Below, one piece after another: positions 519-24,292 of a stretch of DNA of 64,000 nt. Numbering within the stretch: position 1 is the stretch's first letter; every line of letters starts with the position of its first letter. This DNA comes from Candidatus Pacearchaeota archaeon (GTDB taxonomy: Archaea > Nanobdellota > Nanobdellia > Pacearchaeales > GW2011-AR1), in assembly GCA_038869755.1 (NCBI GenBank), contig JAWCQN010000001.1:33876-97875 (forward strand). The letters run 5' to 3'. The translations under genes and the position numbers were made by a program. A model generated the notes under the pieces. It made no database searches and was not told where the DNA came from. It saw only the letters and a program-made list of their open reading frames with translations.

Positions 519-602
519 TGCGGGAGATAGGATTCGAACCTATGCAAGCACTAAGCTATCACGGCCTAAACGTGACCCGTTTGACCACTCCGGCACTCCC
601 GC
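519..602 (-). tRNA. tRNA-Leu (anticodon UAG), type II tRNA with a long variable arm
   Basis: Cloverleaf folds by eye. Acceptor GCGGGAG/CTCCCGC, anticodon stem UCACG/CGUGA with loop UUUAGGC, T-arm AUAGG-UUCGAAU-CCUAU, 17-nt variable arm. Confidence 0.85.
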
Positions 603-8954: not shown

Positions 8955-8963
8955 TTAAGATAT

Positions 8964-9047
8964 GCGAGAGTGCCGGAGTGGTCAAACGGGTCACGTTAAG
9001 GCCGTGATAGCTTAGTGCTTGCATAGGTTCGAATCCTATCTCTCGCA
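8964..9047 (+). tRNA. tRNA-Leu, type II. The anticodon loop reads UUAAGGC, so the apparent anticodon is AAG, which is unusual
   Basis: Near-identical to the minus-strand tRNA at 519-602. It has a compensatory acceptor-stem change (GCGAGAG/CTCTCGC). Position 34 is A instead of U. Confidence 0.75.
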
Positions 9048-9063
9048 TATCATCACTTTTAAA

Positions 9064-11718: not shown

Positions 11719-12552
11719 TCATTTCATTAAACCATCCAATGGGCTTTTAATTTTTTTAAGTTCTTCTTTTGATATATGGGTATATATCTGAGTTGTTGAT
11801 AAATCGCTGTGACCCAATAATTCTTGAATAATTCTTATGTCTGTTCCATTTTCCAAGAGATGGGTTGCAAAACTATGTCTTAATGTATGGCAGGAAACTT
11901 GTTTTTTTATTCCAGCCTTTAACGAGAGAAATTGAACTATTTTCTGTATATTTCTCGAGCTTAATTTACCATTCGGACCTGAAAACAGGTATTCTTGTTT
12001 CATATTTTTTTGATTTTCAACCTGGCTTATCAAATCATTTTTTAGAAAATTCGGGATGTTAAAAATCCTGTCTTTTTTTCCTTTAGCCTGCCTTATAATT
12101 CCTATATTTTCATCAAACTGCAAATCTTCAATTTTCAAATTGATTAACTCAGAGACCCTCATACCAGCAGCGTATAATAAAGACAACATAAGTTTGCTTT
12201 TTTTTGTTTCGCATTTATCCAGTAAAACCTTAACTTCTTCCTTGGTTAAAACAGTTGGTATTTTTTTCTCTCTTTTAGGCCTTTTAATTCCAATAGTCGG
12301 ATCTGTTTTTAAAATATTTAAGTAGGCATATTTTATAGCAGACAAAAAAAGAATTATTGACATTGAAGATTTATTTGATAGTTTTTCTGACATGTATTTT
12401 TTAATATCATCTTCTTTTATTTCTTCCGGTTTTTTGCCTGTAAAATCCAAAAGTCCCATATTTGCACTAAGATAATTCCTAATAGTATATTCTGAATTTT
12501 TAGATATTTTTAATTCAATTTTCAGTTTTTCTAAAAAATCATTTTTATCCAT
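11719..12552 (-). CDS. xerA: Tyrosine recombinase, XerA/XerCD-like integrase
   Basis: Catalytic box HTLRHSFATHLLENGTDIRIIQELLGHSDLSTTQIYTH with the R..H..R..Y tetrad, and an N-terminal SAM-like core-binding domain. Start placed at the internal Met (ORF open to 12591). Confidence 0.85.
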   Translation of the reverse strand: MDKNDFLEKLKIELKISKNSEYTIRNYLSANMGLLDFTGKKPEEIKEDDIKKYMSEKLSNKSSMSIILFLSAIKYAYLNILKTDPTIGIKRPKREKKIPTVLTKEEVKVLLDKCETKKSKLMLSLLYAAGMRVSELINLKIEDLQFDENIGIIRQAKGKKDRIFNIPNFLKNDLISQVENQKNMKQEYLFSGPNGKLSSRNIQKIVQFLSLKAGIKKQVSCHTLRHSFATHLLENGTDIRIIQELLGHSDLSTTQIYTHISKEELKKIKSPLDGLMK

Positions 12553-13114
12553 TGTTATAATTTTTATATAATGCCAAAATATTATCTTCATTAATTATTT
12601 CGACTCTTTTTTTATGCTCCATTATTTCATGAAATGGTTTTGTGTAGAGATCGTGGGCTAAAATGTGGGAAATGTATATAATTTTAAGGCAATAATGCAC
12701 ATTGCCTTTCTTAATAAAATGATCAACTGAAAAAAGTTTAAATATTGTACTGAAACAGTCCATTAAAAATTCTTTGTGCCATGGCCTAATTATTCCATCA
12801 AAATAACATTTTATACCGCCAATTTTTTCCTGACAAGAATCCAAAAAATCTTGTATTAAATATGGGGCAACTAACTGAAGATTAGGCTGCATATTTCTTA
12901 AATTTCTATCAAAAAGAGTTGCAAACCTATAATCATTATCATGGCATTCATGAAACCACCTTAATAATTGATCCATATCCTTCCTATTTTTAAACTTTTG
13001 AATTTTCGAATCTGATACATTAAAAGAAAATGAAGCTACAATAATATCTCCTTTTCTATCTCCAGCGTGATTTAAGTCGTCAAAACCAATAATTAAGGTT
13101 TTATCCTCTAACAT
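12545..13114 (-). CDS. Hypothetical protein with a possible RNase H-like N-terminus
   Basis: The N-terminus LIIGFDDLNHAGDRKGDIIVA loosely resembles the RNase HII GIDEAGRGPV motif. Otherwise no recognisable family. Confidence 0.3.
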   Translation of the reverse strand: MLEDKTLIIGFDDLNHAGDRKGDIIVASFSFNVSDSKIQKFKNRKDMDQLLRWFHECHDNDYRFATLFDRNLRNMQPNLQLVAPYLIQDFLDSCQEKIGGIKCYFDGIIRPWHKEFLMDCFSTIFKLFSVDHFIKKGNVHYCLKIIYISHILAHDLYTKPFHEIMEHKKRVEIINEDNILALYKNYNNG

Positions 13115-16574: not shown

Positions 16575-17252
16575 CTAAGAACATTCACCCTCTATGTAAT
16601 ATAAAACTCTTTCATCAGAACAGGCAACACATGAATTGGAGAATGTTTCTGGAACAGGATTACATGGTACTCTAATACACTCTATCTGCCTGTATCCACA
16701 AACTGGTTTGTAAATCTGAATACAATGTGGCATGTTTCTTTGTCCAGGGAGGCAGTTTATTTTATCTTTATTTGGAATGTTATTTGAAATAAGTGAGATT
16801 ATCAATTCAACTTGGGATGTATTTGACGGAACAATATCAAATCTTTTTCCTAAATTATCCAAAAGAGTTTTCATTCCATTAAAAGTAATTGATTCGTCAG
16901 CAGAGGTATTTGATATGGTATTATCCATTATAAATTCTAATTTATTATTTTGAAATTTATAAATTCCTCCATAAGTTTCAACACCATCAAAATCCTTTTC
17001 CTCCAACCCAGTGTAAAACTCCATAAGCATTACTGGAGAAAAACCCTCTATTGGCCTTCCTTTCTCTCTAATATACTTGTTTTGTATAGAATTAAAAAAA
17101 TAGCTGTAAATTTCTTCTGAAGTTCTGCCTGAAGAAGTTTGAGTTTTTTTAATTATAAGGTATGAGTTTATTACTAAAAGAATGAAAATTAAAAGCAGAA
17201 TGAAAACAATCACTACAATAATTGTTAAAAATTTAGTATTACTTTTAGCCAT
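16575..17252 (-). CDS. Exported Cys-rich protein (N-terminal TM anchor)
   Basis: N-terminal hydrophobic helix. C-terminal region with 10 Cys (CLPGQRNMPHCIQIYKPVCGYRQIECIRVPCNPVPETFSNSCVACS...). Confidence 0.5.
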   Translation of the reverse strand: MAKSNTKFLTIIVVIVFILLLIFILLVINSYLIIKKTQTSSGRTSEEIYSYFFNSIQNKYIREKGRPIEGFSPVMLMEFYTGLEEKDFDGVETYGGIYKFQNNKLEFIMDNTISNTSADESITFNGMKTLLDNLGKRFDIVPSNTSQVELIISLISNNIPNKDKINCLPGQRNMPHCIQIYKPVCGYRQIECIRVPCNPVPETFSNSCVACSDERVLYYIEGECS

Positions 17253-18549
17253 AACTTCTCTAATAACCTAGTTTATTTAAATTTAATCAAAAATCCAAAA
17301 ACAATTGGAATCTTTTTACTTTATTAAGAAAAGATTAAACATCATAGATTTTAAATAACTTGATTAAGATCTAAATACGAATAAAACTCTCTTTTAGTTT
17401 TAATTGGATTATTAATAGTGAGGATGGTTAAATTTTTTATATCAAATAATTTATTTTCTAATTCAGGCGTTAGTACTAATTATTCTCTTGACATTATAAA
17501 AATGAAAAAAAATAAAAAACTTTCATCTTGATGGGGAGAATTTTAAATTTATCATGGATGGTGTAGAAAACTGATATCAGGGTTAAAAAAAGAGGTAAAG
17601 TAGAAATTGTTTTTGAGTCTTATTGTAGTGTTGGAAAGTATGGGGGAGAGAAAATGGTGTGAAGAGTAAATTAATAGTTGAGGAGTTTTCTAAGAGATGT
17701 TTATTTAATTTTACAACTTAACCACTATCTTCTTCAAATTCATTATAATTAAGCACTACCAATATAAGTTAAATATTTTAATTATTAATTAAATATTTTA
17801 GACATGTTTTTTTAAGGAAGGATATTTTTGAAAAAGGAGTATTTTTCCTTCATTTTTAGAGTGCTGACAATATATCTTGTGCGTAATTTTAAGTGATTTT
17901 TAGCCTATTTTTAAGTTTTTTATGAATTTGTGCGAACTTTTTAGCTTATTTTTAGTGGTACTAAAAGTTTTAAGTATTAATTAAATATTTTAAGTATATT
18001 TTTTAAGCCAATTATATCATCTTCAGTCTTGATTTAAACTATCTATGTATTAAACTATCTACATATCTTGAGAATCTTGAGGCCATTCTTTTATTTCTTA
18101 TAACTATTTCATATAATTAAGACCATAACTATATTGTTTGAATTAGTTCGGATTATAACCTTAAAAAGAATAGCTATTACTCTAAGTATAATCCAAAAGG
18201 TTAGAAAGTGATGAAAAATTGTTAAAATAGAACATATTTGAATTTATGGTTTTTCATACAATCAAAAAAATACAAAAAAATATTTAGAATAACACCGAAA
18301 ATAATAAAAATAGGCTATGCTAAAACTTTTAAGCAAAGATTAAAATTTTTAATAAGCTTAGTTTAAATCTTGATTTAGAGAAGTATAAGAAATATAGTCA
18401 TTATTAGTATTATATATTAAGCCCCGAATATGTTGATTAAATCCAATTAGACTAAGTAAACTAAGTAAAAAATAAGAAAAAACCTAAAAAGTGTTTTATT
18501 CAAAATTTTAGCAAGAAACCGGTATTTTCCAGCTATTCAAAATAAAATT

Positions 18550-18717
18550 TTATTTTATTAGCTTGTAATTCCTTATAAGCTTGGCTATACCTATGACTAA
18601 AACTGCAATTGCTATCAGCCACGGATTATATATTGCCAACTGAGGCAACACATTGGCAGCTTCAAGCAAGAGCAATAGCCCTATAATAGTTACAAGCCAT
18701 GCAGTTAGTTTTGCCAT
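18550..18717 (-). CDS. Possible small hydrophobic protein (55 aa) inside the ORF-free region
   Basis: MAKLTAWLVTIIGLLLLLEAANVLPQLAIYNPWLIAIAVLVIGIAKLIRNYKLIK. Two TM helices. Not in the ORF track (<60 aa). Confidence 0.3.
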   Translation of the reverse strand: MAKLTAWLVTIIGLLLLLEAANVLPQLAIYNPWLIAIAVLVIGIAKLIRNYKLIK

Positions 18718-19169
18718 TTTCTCTCCTTTATATTTTCCATTTTTTTATGTGTTTTTTTGTGTGTTTTGAACTAATAAAACATGGCCAGCCTAATAATTCC
18801 TAAAAATCTTTACAAAAGAAATTTAGAGTAAAACCGATCGTGTAAATTAGGATATCCAACCTAATTTCAAACAATTTTTAGCTCTTTTTTAGCTTAATAA
18901 TCTTAATATTTTAGAGATTTTAAAGTTTTCTAATTTTGATTGTACGAACTTAAGAGGAATTAATAAACCTGAAGAAACAGACTAATTTTTGTCGAGTTAA
19001 TTTTTTAAAAATGAATTTTTTTAAATAGTTAATTAAAAAAATAACAAAAAATATTTGTTTAAGCGATTTAAAAAAACAGAAAAACCTTATTTTTTGTTAA
19101 ATGTTCTGTGTTAACCTTTACTATTATTTGACTATTTTTGAACATCCTTAGTTTTTATTTTTATCGACG

Positions 19170-19230
19170 ATAAACAGCTGTTTAAGGCTGTTTAAACAGC
19201 TGTTTAAACAAAAAATGATGGTGTTTAAAC
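19170..19230. promoter_or_regulatory. Cluster of palindromic iteron-like motifs (AAACAGCTGTTTAA / GTTTAAAC), about 120 bp upstream of the wHTH gene
   Basis: GATAAACAGCTGTTTAAGGCTGTTTAAACAGCTGTTTAAAC ... GTGTTTAAAC. The same core recurs inside the downstream ORF at about 19611-19625. Confidence 0.45.
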
Positions 19231-19348
19231 TATATAAATTAGTCTTTTTATGGTATTTTTAGTAGATTTTTATATAGTTAATTTATATGATTTATTTAGT
19301 TTTTAGAAAGGTTTAAATAGTATTCTTCGTCTATAAATATTAAACAAT

Positions 19349-19981
19349 TTGTATTTTAATAAAATGTTTGAATGGTTTTTTGGAAAAAAGGATAAAAAAG
19401 AAGCTGATGAAATAAAAAAAGAAGTCAGAAATTCTTTTTCACTTGTAAAAAAAGATATAAATAAAATAACTACGTGGATTAATCACCTAAATGAATATGA
19501 TAAATCCTTAAGTAATGAAGTAAATAGTGTTAAAGAAGAAATATCGAATATAAATGACCAGATAGAACAAATAAAAGATTTAATCTCTATGATATCTGAC
19601 GGGTTTAATAAACAGCTGTTTAAAACATCAACGCCTGTTTATCGTAAACAAACAGGTGTTGATGTTGTTCAAACAGGTGTTCAAACAGGTGTTCAAACAG
19701 CTAATTTTTACGGATTTTCTAACTTGTCTGCAACAGAAAGAGCAATAATATGGATATTAATCAACAATGATTTAAAATTAAGTTATGATGATTTAGCAGC
19801 AATGTTAGGAAAAACAAGGTCAACAATAAGAGGGCAAATAAATAGTATAAAACAAAAAAGTGTGGGATTAATAGAGGAGTATATTGAAAAAAACGGAAAA
19901 AAGAGGGTTTACATACCTGAAGAAATAAAACAAAAAATATTGAAAAAGACGAAAGTGAGAGTTAAAAAAGATAAAGAGTAG
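19349..19981 (+). CDS. Coiled-coil + C-terminal winged-helix DNA-binding protein with an in-frame tandem repeat (QTGV x3)
   Basis: N-terminal heptad-rich region. 12-nt tandem repeat CAAACAGGTGTT x3 at 19648-19701 (QTGVDVVQTGVQTGVQT). C-terminal HTH-like SATERAIIWILINNDLKLSYDDLAAMLGKTRSTIRGQINSIK. Confidence 0.55.
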   Translation: MYFNKMFEWFFGKKDKKEADEIKKEVRNSFSLVKKDINKITTWINHLNEYDKSLSNEVNSVKEEISNINDQIEQIKDLISMISDGFNKQLFKTSTPVYRKQTGVDVVQTGVQTGVQTANFYGFSNLSATERAIIWILINNDLKLSYDDLAAMLGKTRSTIRGQINSIKQKSVGLIEEYIEKNGKKRVYIPEEIKQKILKKTKVRVKKDKE

Positions 19982-20325: not shown

Positions 20326-20988
20326 TTATTTAGACTCTCTTAGTAGTAGAATTGTATCTAAAGAAGCTAATTTTTTAAAATCGTCAGGGATATGGAGGAT
20401 GATATGTTTATTATTCTCTTTAGTTTTTATCAAAGGGGCCCCTTTATTTAAGATCCTTTGAACATAATCTCTAATGGAACTTTGGGAAAGAGATAATTTA
20501 GTAGCAAGGAAGTGATAATCTATAGTCGTTTGGTTGTTGTCATATTGGTAAATCGTTGAAAAAACAAGCATTTCCTGATTGGTTAAACTTTTGATTTTAT
20601 CTTTAAGTTCTTGTCTTAAACCATCTATTTGGTTTATTATTAGTGTTGATAAATTTCCTTTTTCACTTAATTTGTCTGTCTGTCTGATTGTCTGTCTGTC
20701 TGTCGAAACCCCTTCATTTCCTATGGAATTTTTTATATTTTGCCTTTTTAAGGCTTGAAATGGTAAAATATCTGTCGAAGTGTCTGTCGAAGTAACTTTA
20801 TGTGTCGAATTTGTCTGTCGAAGTGTTTGAACTTCAATATTAAGTGTCGAATTTAATTTAGTTAGATTAAGAATAGATGTTTGTATCTCTTCTAATTCTT
20901 TTTTTATACTATTTATTTCTATTTTTAAATCATATATATCTTGTTTTACCTTGTTAAATGCTTCTTTTATTTGATCCATTTTTTTCAA
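20326..20988 (-). CDS. Paralogous coiled-coil + winged-helix protein with in-frame STD/TDxS short repeats
   Basis: Same architecture as 19349-19981, convergent to it. DNA repeats TGTCTGTCGAAG/TGTCTGTCTG at 20683-20710 and 20771-20860 encode STDTSTD...STDRQTIRQTD. C-terminal wHTH-like LVFSTIYQYDNNQTTIDYHFLATKLSLSQSSIRDYVQRILNKG. Confidence 0.55.
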   Translation of the reverse strand: MKKMDQIKEAFNKVKQDIYDLKIEINSIKKELEEIQTSILNLTKLNSTLNIEVQTLRQTNSTHKVTSTDTSTDILPFQALKRQNIKNSIGNEGVSTDRQTIRQTDKLSEKGNLSTLIINQIDGLRQELKDKIKSLTNQEMLVFSTIYQYDNNQTTIDYHFLATKLSLSQSSIRDYVQRILNKGAPLIKTKENNKHIILHIPDDFKKLASLDTILLLRESK

Positions 20989-22041: not shown

Positions 22042-22439
22042 ATTTTGTAGAAATTAAGTTAATATTTAAACTTTTCTGTAGTCACCAAGTATTTTTAGTG
22101 TTTTTTGTTTTATTTTTTCTTAAATTTAATAATTTTAATACTTTTATTTGAAATTTATAAGTATTTAATCAATTATAAAAAACTAAAAAGATGAATAAGT
22201 ATAGTTAATTTTAAATAAAAGATATTATATTCAAAAAATATATTTAATAGTGGTTAAGAATTGAAATTAATATACATAATAGTGGTCAGGAAAAAGTTAT
22301 AACTATTTTTTTATGTAGTTCTTTTTAGGCAATATATTAGAAATAATAAAAAAATAGGTTTTAAAGAGTATTTGATTTTGTTTATTTTTTCTCTTTATTT
22401 TACCCTACCCCTTTATTTCATATAGAAATATTTAAAAAA

Positions 22440-22600
22440 GAAATGTTATTTTTTTGTTTTTAAAATTTATTTATAAATATTTATATATTATATAATACAT
22501 ATTGTATTATATTTATTCTATTAAATATATTATATTAATTTTATTTTAGCATACATACTAAATTACATATGATATATTATATATAATAGATAATCTAACT
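22440..22600. other. Near-pure A/T stretch, candidate DNA-unwinding element
   Basis: About 160 bp with only a handful of G/C. It lies within the 990-bp ORF-free region upstream of orc1/cdc6. Confidence 0.45.
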
Positions 22601-22747
22601 TATTTATTTTAATATATCTTATATCAAAATCTTATTTATTCTATATAACCTGCTGTTTTAATATATCTTATATCAAAATCTTATTTATTCTATATAACCT
22701 GCTGTTTTAATATATCTTATATCAAAATCTTATTTATTCTATATAAC
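22601..22747. repeat. Three perfect tandem 49-bp direct repeats (AATATATCTTATATCAAAATCTTATTTATTCTATATAACCTGCTGTTTT)
   Basis: Read directly; copies start at about 22601, 22650 and 22699. No spacers, so not CRISPR. About 290 bp upstream of orc1/cdc6. Confidence 0.85.
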
Positions 22748-23032
22748 CTGCTGTTGTATACTTAAAATATACTTAGTATGTAGACTTAGCTTCAATATTA
22801 ACCTTTAACTTTTAGCATTTTTTTTCCAAGAGAAATCATGGTGTGACTCTTTTTAATAAACTAAAGATTATATAAACTCTTATTAAATTGTACTAAAATT
22901 TATGGTAATACTTTTATTCGATAAGTGAACGTCTTATTATTTTTAATCAAAAGTTTAATTAATGTCTCCATATGAAATGAAGGTACTATTTTTTTCTATA
23001 ATAAAATTTATACAAAACTTTATAAAATATAT

Positions 23033-24292
23033 TTGGATTTAGACTTATACATTAAATTAAAAAGGGATGAAATGGACTTAAAAGTTAATTCAAAGGTAGA
23101 TAAAATTTTTGATTCTTTTATGGATAATAAGATTTTTCAGGACAAATTTGTTTTACAGACAGGTTATACTCCAAGTACTATACCTCATAGAGATGAGCTT
23201 ATTACCCAAATTGCTTCAATACTTGCCCCTTCATTAAGGGGTGAAAAAACCAGTAATCTTTTTGTTTATGGTAATACAGGGACCGGAAAAACACTTTCTA
23301 TTCAGTATGTAAGGGACGAATTACTAAGGAGAAACAACCATTTAAAAAATAACTTAGTAATAGAGTATGTAAATTGTAAATTAAAAAAAATATCAGATAC
23401 TGAATACAGGATTTTTGCGGAATTAATAAAAAAATTAGGAGGAAATGTTCCTGCAACAGGGTTGCCCACAGATCAGGTTTATAATAAGTTTATAGAATTA
23501 GTAGATAGTGGTAAAAAATTAATTATCTTAGTTTTTGATGAAATCGATCATGCAGTTGATAAAATATCAGATAATTTTTTATATAATTTAACAAGAATTA
23601 ATTCTGAATTAAAAAAATCACAAATAAGTATTATTGGAATTAGTAATAATTTAACTTTTTTGGAAAATTTAGATCCAAGAGTAAGAAGTTCATTGAGTGA
23701 AGAGGAAATTGTATTTCCACCATATAATGCCTTACAACTTAAAGATATATTAAAAGAGAGGGCTGAAAAAGCCTTTAAGAAAGGGGTTTTAGATGAAGGA
23801 GTCATTTCAAAATGTGCTGCCTTTGCAGCAAAAGAACATGGAGATGCAAGAAGAGCTTTGGATTTATTAAGAATTGCAGGAGAAATTGCAGAAAGGAAGA
23901 ATTCAGATAAAATAACTTTAGACGATATTGATTTAGCCAATGATAAAATTGAAAGAGATAAAATATTAGATAGTGTCACAAATGCTCCAAAACAATTCCA
24001 ATTATCTTTATTGGCAATAATAAGTTTAGTTGAGAAAAATAAAATCAAAGAAATATTTACAGGAGAAGTTTATAATGAATACCAAGATTTATGTAAAATT
24101 ACTAAAACAGAAGTTTTAACACAAAGAAGGGTTTCAGATATATTATCTGAATTTGATATGATGGGAATAATTAATTCAAATATTATTTCTAAAGGAAGGC
24201 AAGGAAGAACAAGAAAGATTAGGCTATCAATACCAGTCAAATTAATTCCAAAAGTTAAAGAAAACTTATACGAATCTCTTAATTTACCTTAA
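23033..24292 (+). CDS. orc1: Orc1/Cdc6 replication initiator
   Basis: AAA+ Walker A FVYGNTGTGKT, Walker B ILVFDEID, sensor motifs, C-terminal winged helix. Confidence 0.9.
   Translation: MDLDLYIKLKRDEMDLKVNSKVDKIFDSFMDNKIFQDKFVLQTGYTPSTIPHRDELITQIASILAPSLRGEKTSNLFVYGNTGTGKTLSIQYVRDELLRRNNHLKNNLVIEYVNCKLKKISDTEYRIFAELIKKLGGNVPATGLPTDQVYNKFIELVDSGKKLIILVFDEIDHAVDKISDNFLYNLTRINSELKKSQISIIGISNNLTFLENLDPRVRSSLSEEEIVFPPYNALQLKDILKERAEKAFKKGVLDEGVISKCAAFAAKEHGDARRALDLLRIAGEIAERKNSDKITLDDIDLANDKIERDKILDSVTNAPKQFQLSLLAIISLVEKNKIKEIFTGEVYNEYQDLCKITKTEVLTQRRVSDILSEFDMMGIINSNIISKGRQGRTRKIRLSIPVKLIPKVKENLYESLNLP

Follow-up and report, generated by a model that had tools for sequence, protein, structure and literature searches.

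What occupies the 2.1 kb between positions 17253 and 19348 of this archaeal chromosome, where no open reading frame (ORF) of at least 60 amino acids (aa) is found? The DNA that we analysed as a whole, hereafter the window, is 64,000 nucleotides (nt) long; it is part of the chromosomal core of a DPANN archaeon of the Pacearchaeota and is no mobile element. The original prediction had singled out the stretch 17253-19348 for its lack of such ORFs, and an ORF-gap scan agreed: none overlaps it on either strand, and it is the longest gap of this kind in the window. The sole other gap of at least 400 nt, 22042-23032, corresponds to the putative replication origin (oriC). Since the DNA of the window is 70% A+T, long ORFs are expected to be missing from any non-coding stretch; the unusual trait is the quantity of non-coding DNA rather than its stop codons. 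We propose that this part of the chromosomal core, close to the origin, is an intergenic zone of composite nature, holding several features instead of one, and we estimate the probability of this reading at about 65%. Its main component is a 28-bp sequence resembling dif (the 'dif-like site'). Sites of the dif type mark the places where circular chromosomes get unlinked, and archaeal cases come from few lineages only. What would be new here is a family of dif-like sites in DPANN archaea, lying beside oriC, together with a candidate cis-regulatory RNA that is possibly a new RNA motif.

The stretch was compared with loci from related genomes. A first set of 117 related loci was fetched using Orc1 and a 210-aa winged helix-turn-helix (wHTH) protein as probes; the closer relatives L119-L122 were reached through a 55-aa protein encoded within the stretch, and translated comparisons covered 121 related loci. 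A metagenome search with the 225-aa membrane protein encoded on the left-hand side (16575-17252) gave no closer relatives. A conservation profile, suggested by the original prediction, was obtained by blastn against all loci. It consists of four conserved islands, at 17860-18016, 18303-18368 (a short one), 18503-18951 and 19153-19343, and the rest of the stretch is unconserved, with no match elsewhere. The gene for the 55-aa protein interrupts the non-coding DNA, with about 1.3 kb of it on one side and about 0.63 kb on the other.

The first island opens with the dif-like site (17860-17887, plus strand; AGTGCTGACAA TATATC TTGTGCGTAAT), in which two 11-bp arms surround a 6-bp spacer. Bacterial and archaeal dif sites are defined in the literature by this 11-6-11 layout (PMC2958812, PMC4640148, PMC5357621). 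A matrix built from 15 relatives, with the window left out, found one match in the 64 kb, at 30.0 bits; the runner-up reached 6.5 bits. The consensus of 32 distinct sites, AGTTCGCACAA TATATC TTGTGCGAACT, has perfectly inverted 11-bp arms, and some relatives carry a near-perfect palindrome, for example GGTTCGCACAA TGTATA TTGTGCGAATG. Across the family the two arms are symmetric at a median of 7 of 11 positions, compared to 3.1 of 11 for random 28-mers. The window copy, also symmetric at 7 of 11, reaches a value that random 28-mers equal or exceed with P = 0.02. Information content is higher in the right arm (16.3 bits) than in the left (9.9 bits).

The position of the site is kept in 36 distinct loci (the window plus 35 others), where it lies 1.05 to 2.6 kb upstream of the gene for the wHTH protein. 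Its distance to the start of orc1 is 4.2 to 6.7 kb, with one locus at 10.9 kb (24 loci); in the window orc1 is 5.2 kb away, and the first of the origin recognition box (ORB)-like boxes about 4.5 kb. It is always intergenic, usually present once per related locus, and in most relatives it sits in a gap of 70 to 250 nt that is bounded by the stop codons of convergent genes. Examples of such gaps are 3327-3394 in L002, 6060-6130 in L069 and 814-893 in L073. The genes flanking the site differ in family from genome to genome, so that a gene-turnover hot spot is seen beside a fixed site.

The presumed partner of the site is xerA, a tyrosine recombinase gene located outside the stretch (11719-12591, minus strand). 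Its product scores 242.7 bits against the NCBIfam equivalog model NF040815 (recomb_XerA_Arch), whose cut-off is 220, and its identity to the XerA of relatives is 45 to 72%. Because the recombinase passes the XerA equivalog cut-off, the locus is no integrated element. In the 15 loci where both are visible, xerA starts between 48 nt and 7.2 kb from the dif-like site. The order xerA, dif-like site, wHTH gene (plus strand), second wHTH gene (minus strand), 147-aa gene, oriC, orc1 and polD is found in dozens of loci, where xerA lies farther upstream and the intervening genes are variable. We consider it quite probable that 17860-17887 is a dif-type site, the predicted target of XerA.

The family was also compared with the dif site of Escherichia coli, which is GGTGCGCATAA TGTATA TTATGTTAAAT and is used by XerC and XerD. 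The best family members match it at 21 of 28 positions, with an identical TGTATA spacer, compared to a maximum of 18 for the 28-mers of the window.

To the right of the site, a conserved flank (17888-18016, plus strand) carries phased T-tracts, an extra copy of part of the right arm (half site TTGTGCGAA, 17928-17936, also conserved) and a box, TAAAAGTTTTAAG, at 17962-17974. An nhmmer profile of 17855-18012 retrieved the block in more than 20 relatives, in constant orientation and always upstream of the wHTH gene. Of the 20 exact copies of the box in 94 loci, 19 are located 0 to 3 kb upstream of that gene. The TTTTAAG units that had been noticed at 17880-17980 are present, and they turned out to be T-tracts, of the form TTTT(T)AG or TTTTAAG, spaced at 10 to 11 nt; this phasing is found on either side of the dif-like site. 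The repeated AT-rich words described earlier are likewise real, as a pair of segments (17770-17812 and 17962-18004) that match at 84% over 43 nt. The flank, some 130 bp long, is probably accessory or architectural DNA; a part in chromosome folding is conjecture.

The third island holds a gene module on the minus strand. The original prediction had pointed to a 55-aa ORF with two transmembrane helices at 18550-18717 (minus strand). We found 232 homologues of its product, 50 to 70 aa long and mostly 52 to 58 aa, one of them 100% identical (hypothetical protein QXI33_00415 of a Pacearchaeota metagenome-assembled genome). Substitutions between the window and close relatives are distributed over codon positions 1 to 3 as 51:31:124. 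This third-position bias, together with the homologues, establishes that the ORF is a real gene. Nucleotide identity of the closest relatives over 18544-18951 is 77 to 79%, including those whose downstream context differs, and the closer relatives L119-L122 conserve this segment alone. Read along the minus strand, the module consists of a half site resembling one dif arm (18940-18952, AAGTTCGTACAAT on the minus strand, with no full-site score), a transcription factor B recognition element (BRE) and TATA box, a leader, a Shine-Dalgarno sequence and the 55-aa gene. The BRE/TATA box was located by pattern scan (18918-18929, AAAACTTTAAAA) and its counterpart in the aligned relatives is AAAG(N)TTTAAA(W)A. 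Of the 13 loci with a long leader, 10 have the half site AAGTTCGTACAAT, placed 10 to 15 nt ahead of the promoter of the 55-aa gene. Nucleotide conservation of the module ends exactly at the half site, at 18951, and the module is found in other contexts in L119 and L121.

At about 150 to 180 nt, the leader of the 55-aa gene is unusually long for the window, where the distance between promoter and start codon is about 30 nt in most genes. The segment 18760-18906 (minus strand) matches a covariance model at 98 bits, and its proposed structure has 27 pairs in three helices: helix 1 pairs 18867-18860 with 18851-18844, helix 2 pairs 18839-18832 with 18790-18783, and helix 3 pairs 18827-18818 with 18808-18799 around the loop TTTTGTAAA. 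RNAalifold predicted one hairpin, with compensatory changes at all seven of its pairs. For the whole structure, pairing was counted both on a structure-blind alignment and on the covariance-model alignment, with similar counts: 71 to 73% of the positions are paired, compared to 24 to 53% when the partners are slid. The covariation score is 0.31 to 0.32, against at most 0.14 in the slid controls, and none of 500 shuffles matched it. Helix 3 shows compensatory changes at 9 of its 10 pairs, and the G-U pairs are compatible with the minus strand only. Searching 1.07 Mb with the covariance model gave 16 matches, each of them immediately 5' of a homologue of the 55-aa gene. No Rfam family matches the leader. 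When 13 additional loci, whose homologues of the 55-aa protein are more distant, were searched with the model, no match was obtained, which indicates that the leader is confined to one clade. The leader is a candidate cis-regulatory RNA, with moderate support from these comparisons.

A second class of upstream region, without the long leader, precedes the 55-aa homologues of L065, L070, L078, L081, L092, L104, L106 and L116; it carries a conserved palindrome, ACTTAGTTAACCTAAGT, and repeats of TAAACACC. Distant homologues (L131-L136 and L140) are found among genes for tiny membrane proteins (DUF378, DUF3096) or beside mscL, a neighbourhood that hints at a membrane or osmotic-stress role.

The fourth island leads into the wHTH gene (19349-19981, plus strand), which starts where the stretch ends. 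Its 210-aa product has an N-terminal coiled coil and a C-terminal wHTH domain of the Lrs14/Sta1 type, and more than 265 relatives were found in metagenomes. It matches Pfam HTH_11 at 1e-5 and NCBIfam Sta1 at 2e-6, the latter being a weak likeness under the family cut-off. Its promoter region (19298-19343, plus strand) contains a BRE/TATA box, GAAAGGTTTAAAT, at 19306-19318 that is conserved in relatives. Upstream lies a cluster of palindromes (19161-19215): TTATCGACGATAA at 19161-19173, AAACAGCTGTTT at 19172-19183 and again at 19194-19205, and a half copy. The 12-mer AAACAGCTGTTT has exactly three copies in the 64 kb, at 19172, 19194 and 19610, the last within the wHTH gene. Among 94 loci (1.28 Mb), 469 of the 521 matches to the pattern AAACAG[CG]TGTT (90%) lie within 500 nt of the start of this wHTH gene, and the palindrome block is conserved in about 50 loci. 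Besides these upstream copies, the pattern is repeated two to four times within the coding sequence of this gene and of its homologues (84 loci), where it is read in two frames, as KQ[LV]F 52 times and as QT[AG]V 125 times. The use of two reading frames points to a constraint on the DNA itself and suggests that the palindromes embedded in the gene are protein-binding sites. The upstream cluster presumably serves the wHTH gene as an operator or as a binding array. The second wHTH gene (20326-20988, minus strand), in divergent arrangement with the first, has in-gene repeats of its own at 20672-20829, made of TCTGTCTG and TCTGTCGAAGTG units in the linker region.

Farther to the right, the segment 22390-22990 is probably a typical archaeal oriC. 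It contains three ORB-like boxes (22394-22430, which is inverted; 22823-22848, TTTTCCAAGAGAAATCATGGTGTGA; and 22966-22988) around a region of 17% G+C with three perfect 49-nt tandem repeats (22607-22755), and it lies directly 5' of orc1/cdc6 (23033-24292; Pfam Cdc6_C, 1e-28), which is followed by the genes for the small and large subunits of DNA polymerase D. Similar boxes are found upstream of orc1 in relatives. None occurs in 17253-19348, and a second origin inside the stretch was rejected for that reason. The suggestion that the stretch is the regulatory or replicative core of an element holds in part: a predicted dif-type site, promoters and operator-like palindromes are there, an origin and a mobile element are not. 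Cumulative GC skew climbs steadily through 1-64000 and changes direction neither at the putative origin nor at the dif-like site. The genes on either side of these are mostly on the plus strand, and the skew in the window tracks the direction of transcription rather than that of replication.

At the left edge of the stretch, a BRE/TATA-like box (17271-17288, minus strand; GATTAAATTTAAATAAAC) lies about 20 to 35 nt 5' of the ATG of the 225-aa membrane-protein gene and fits the pattern found upstream of most genes of the window. At the far left of the window are a 5S rRNA gene (653-765) and two near-identical tRNA-Leu genes (519-602, minus strand, and 8963-9048, plus strand; anticodons TAG and AAG), in opposite orientation with 8.4 kb between them.

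On comparison with relatives, about 1.3 kb of the stretch is lineage-specific filler. It comprises three segments. The first, 17301-17859, is A+T-rich and has no blastn or tblastx match in the 121 related loci; it includes a hairpin (17811-17857) and the segment 17520-17700, described earlier as nearly free of C, which indeed has 8 C in 181 nt and ranks among the lowest 0.8% of windows of its size, though it is not the minimum. The second, 18017-18543, has the short match 18303-18368 alone, in few relatives, and carries a second copy of the box, TAAAACTTTTAAG, at 18321-18333. The third, 18953-19160, is a spacer between the 55-aa module and the palindromes; it is very rich in A-tracts and shows little conservation, and its A-tract density is tied for the maximum of the window (z = 3.6 and 2.9). 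Sliding 150-nt folds compared with dinucleotide shuffles gave no folding signal in 17200-18550 on either strand (z from -1.9 to +1.6), signals elsewhere being limited to the small gene and the DNA palindromes. A pattern scan detected no promoter-like box in the filler, and a tRNA scan of the stretch no tRNA. The Rfam scan that had been recommended found no family in the stretch, either at the gathering threshold or at E-values up to 10; the best sub-threshold score was 24.7 bits, on a hairpin, for a threshold of 55.8 bits.

Several observations weigh against the composite reading. The left arm of the window site is weak, symmetric as it is at 7 of 11 positions, and some relatives reach only 4 or 5 of 11; XerA is a single recombinase, and the published Thermococcales sites are nearly symmetric. 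The window copy matches E. coli dif at 18 of 28 positions, a chance level that eight other 28-mers of the window reach, and the degenerate Thermococcales consensus at 20 of 28, again a chance level, reached by 629 other 28-mers. Such values are obtained by chance in A+T-rich DNA; the likeness of the window copy to published dif sequences was dropped as evidence, and the comparison at the level of the family alone was used. The uniqueness of the site applies to the 64 kb and to the homologous loci, and a second, terminus-proximal dif is possible. The site is about 5 kb from oriC, compared to 122 to 180 degrees for the known archaeal dif sites (PMC2958812). The predicted link between XerA and the site is drawn from sequence. 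As to the other components, the leader model comprises 13 distinct sequences with no members beyond them, helix 2 is just 59% paired, and the filler may have functions to which sequence comparison is blind.

Four other explanations were weighed. The stretch could be the scar of mobile DNA that exploits Xer recombination and was integrated or excised at the dif-like site, in which case the filler would be a decayed element and the half sites the remnants of hybrid sites. The variable genes around the site, next to right-hand genes that are strictly syntenic, would fit such a history, as would the arm-like half sites at 17928-17936 and 18940-18952 and the fact that the 55-aa module stops exactly at the second of them and is found in other contexts. 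However, the matrix scan found no second full site in the window, and the filler is unlike the genes of relatives and unlike phage records (17253-18549, blastn). A scan of viral contigs with the site pattern gave 8 matches, in contigs of 31 to 62% G+C, which is about chance by our own uncomputed estimate; one of the 8 is a tailed-phage fragment, and the scan lends no support to the idea that viruses carry the site. We consider the scar improbable. As the site would have to be a target of Xer in this case too, the scar would extend the composite explanation and not replace it.

The same low probability is given to a second possibility, that the filler is a pseudogene relic, namely one or more ordinary genes that decayed recently. 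It is true that the site is flanked left and right by small genes in relatives, genes that are missing from the window, and that the purine-rich strand bias of 17520-17700 resembles the coding-strand bias of the genome. A six-frame scan showed that stop-free segments in the filler are at most 48 aa long and low-complexity in look. The relaxed translated search proposed in the original prediction brought out the 55-aa gene and no other relic among the related loci: tblastx against the 121 loci and tblastn with the ORFs that relatives carry at the homologous position gave no further signal, full protein databases not being searched and an old, fully decayed gene being able to escape.

Somewhat less probable again is that a transcription factor uses the 28-bp palindrome as its operator, the stretch then being an extended regulatory region. 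Palindromes are typical of operators, several helix-turn-helix regulator genes lie nearby, and the half site that precedes the promoter of the 55-aa gene shares the same arm. Against this, the full site stands mostly between convergent stop codons, where there is no promoter to control, a setting hard to reconcile with an operator. Moreover, the dif-like site is always linked to xerA, and its 11-6-11 layout and core, TCGCACAA-TGTATA-TTGTG, are those of a dif-like sequence (E. coli has GCGCATAA-TGTATA-TTATG).

The least probable explanation, one that the original prediction had raised, is that a non-coding RNA gene, long or novel, makes up 17253-18549 or lies within it: the stretch is long, ORF-free and strand-asymmetric in its C-poor segment, and the conserved block 17859-17993 keeps one orientation, but the Rfam, folding and promoter scans were negative as given above, G+C is 24 to 26% compared to 47 to 56% in the 5S rRNA and tRNA genes of the window, and the conserved part, about 160 nt only in a mostly unconserved segment, is accounted for by the DNA palindrome and its flank; the candidate structured RNA of the stretch is the much smaller leader described above.

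Under the composite reading, the components would work as follows. Two XerA monomers would bind the two 11-bp arms of the dif-like site and cut where these meet the 6-bp spacer; strand exchange would follow and would resolve chromosome dimers after replication. The segment 18544-18952 (minus strand) is a self-contained gene module, whose leader would control expression in cis. The segment 19161-19343 combines the promoter of the wHTH gene with a palindrome array, which the wHTH protein would bind. The large gap itself is probably a by-product of gene turnover beside the dif-like site, with no functional requirement. Given the gaps of 70 to 250 nt in relatives, gap size is lineage-specific, and we rejected the idea that a large gap is a conserved feature of the dif boundary, as it might be in Thermococcus kodakarensis.

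A bolder version, which we regard as possible though doubtful, is that in Pacearchaeota the site would be the sole dimer resolution site of the chromosome, about 5 kb from the origin, in a conserved maintenance island formed by xerA, dif, the two wHTH genes, oriC, orc1 and polD, so that resolution would be organised at the origin instead of the terminus. The first wHTH protein would then be an origin-proximal, centromere-like or architectural factor, bound to the AAACAGSTGTTT arrays that precede its own gene and lie within it, and the leader would represent a new riboswitch-like class of archaeal RNA.

If the dif assignment is true, a dif-type site would lie within kilobases of oriC in genomes without FtsK, and dimer resolution need not be bound to the terminus. 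FtsK is not known from archaea. The dif site is usually treated as a marker of the terminus, a bacterial paradigm that is not strictly defining in archaea. The locus would also offer a compact and testable set of components (xerA, dif, oriC, orc1, polD and two DNA-binding proteins) for the maintenance of ultra-small archaeal chromosomes, and the leader is a further candidate among the archaeal cis-regulatory RNAs, of which there are very few. In terms of annotation, a single 2.1-kb gap that seemed 'empty' is made up of at least four separate features.

How does the locus compare with known systems? We found no paper describing a dif site in DPANN archaea. The leader is similar to riboswitch-like and attenuator leaders in being a long, conserved 5' leader with covarying helices, located between promoter and Shine-Dalgarno sequence; it differs in having no Rfam family and in being limited to 13 distinct sequences from one clade. 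Integrative mobile elements exploiting Xer (IMEX) and the pdif modules of Acinetobacter plasmids share with our locus the variable neighbours, a module that ends at an arm-like half site and its occurrence in differing contexts. Here, in contrast, no module is surrounded by paired full sites, and there are neither element genes nor signs of mobility.

With E. coli dif, the common points are the layout and, in the best family members, a similar core. One arm is better conserved than the other in the family described here, as is the case for the XerD and XerC arms. The E. coli system differs in using two recombinases instead of one, and in its location at the terminus, where the site of the window is not.

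In archaea, dimer resolution by XerA and dif has been described for Pyrococcus abyssi, other Thermococcales, Thermoplasma and Sulfolobus (PMC2958812, PMC3646895, PMC4640148). The arms here (...CGCACAA/TTGTGCG...) are not those of the archaeal XerA/dif sites (...TATAA/TTATA...), the left arm is far less conserved than the right, unlike in those sites, and the distance to oriC differs, as discussed above. The window spacer TATATC is compatible with TVDDYM, the spacer of the Thermococcales consensus (WTKDSMTATAA TVDDYM TTATATSHMAA; PMC4640148). The dif site of T. kodakarensis lies in a 1.9-kb intergenic region between convergent genes, with A-tract-rich flanks (PMC5357621, PMC11840125). The sites of the Pacearchaeota relatives are likewise between convergent genes and accompanied by phased T-tracts; most of their gaps are much shorter, the large gap being specific to the genome studied here. 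Modules of xerA and dif are known as well, including a haloarchaeal dif-like site upstream of the xerA operon (PMC5357621, PMC11840125), and the site of the window resembles that of Haloferax and Halobacterium in being linked to xerA. Overall, the locus shares with the archaeal XerA/dif systems a single gene of the XerA family and a 28-bp site of 11-6-11 layout that is intergenic, has conserved A+T-rich flanks and is present once per locus.

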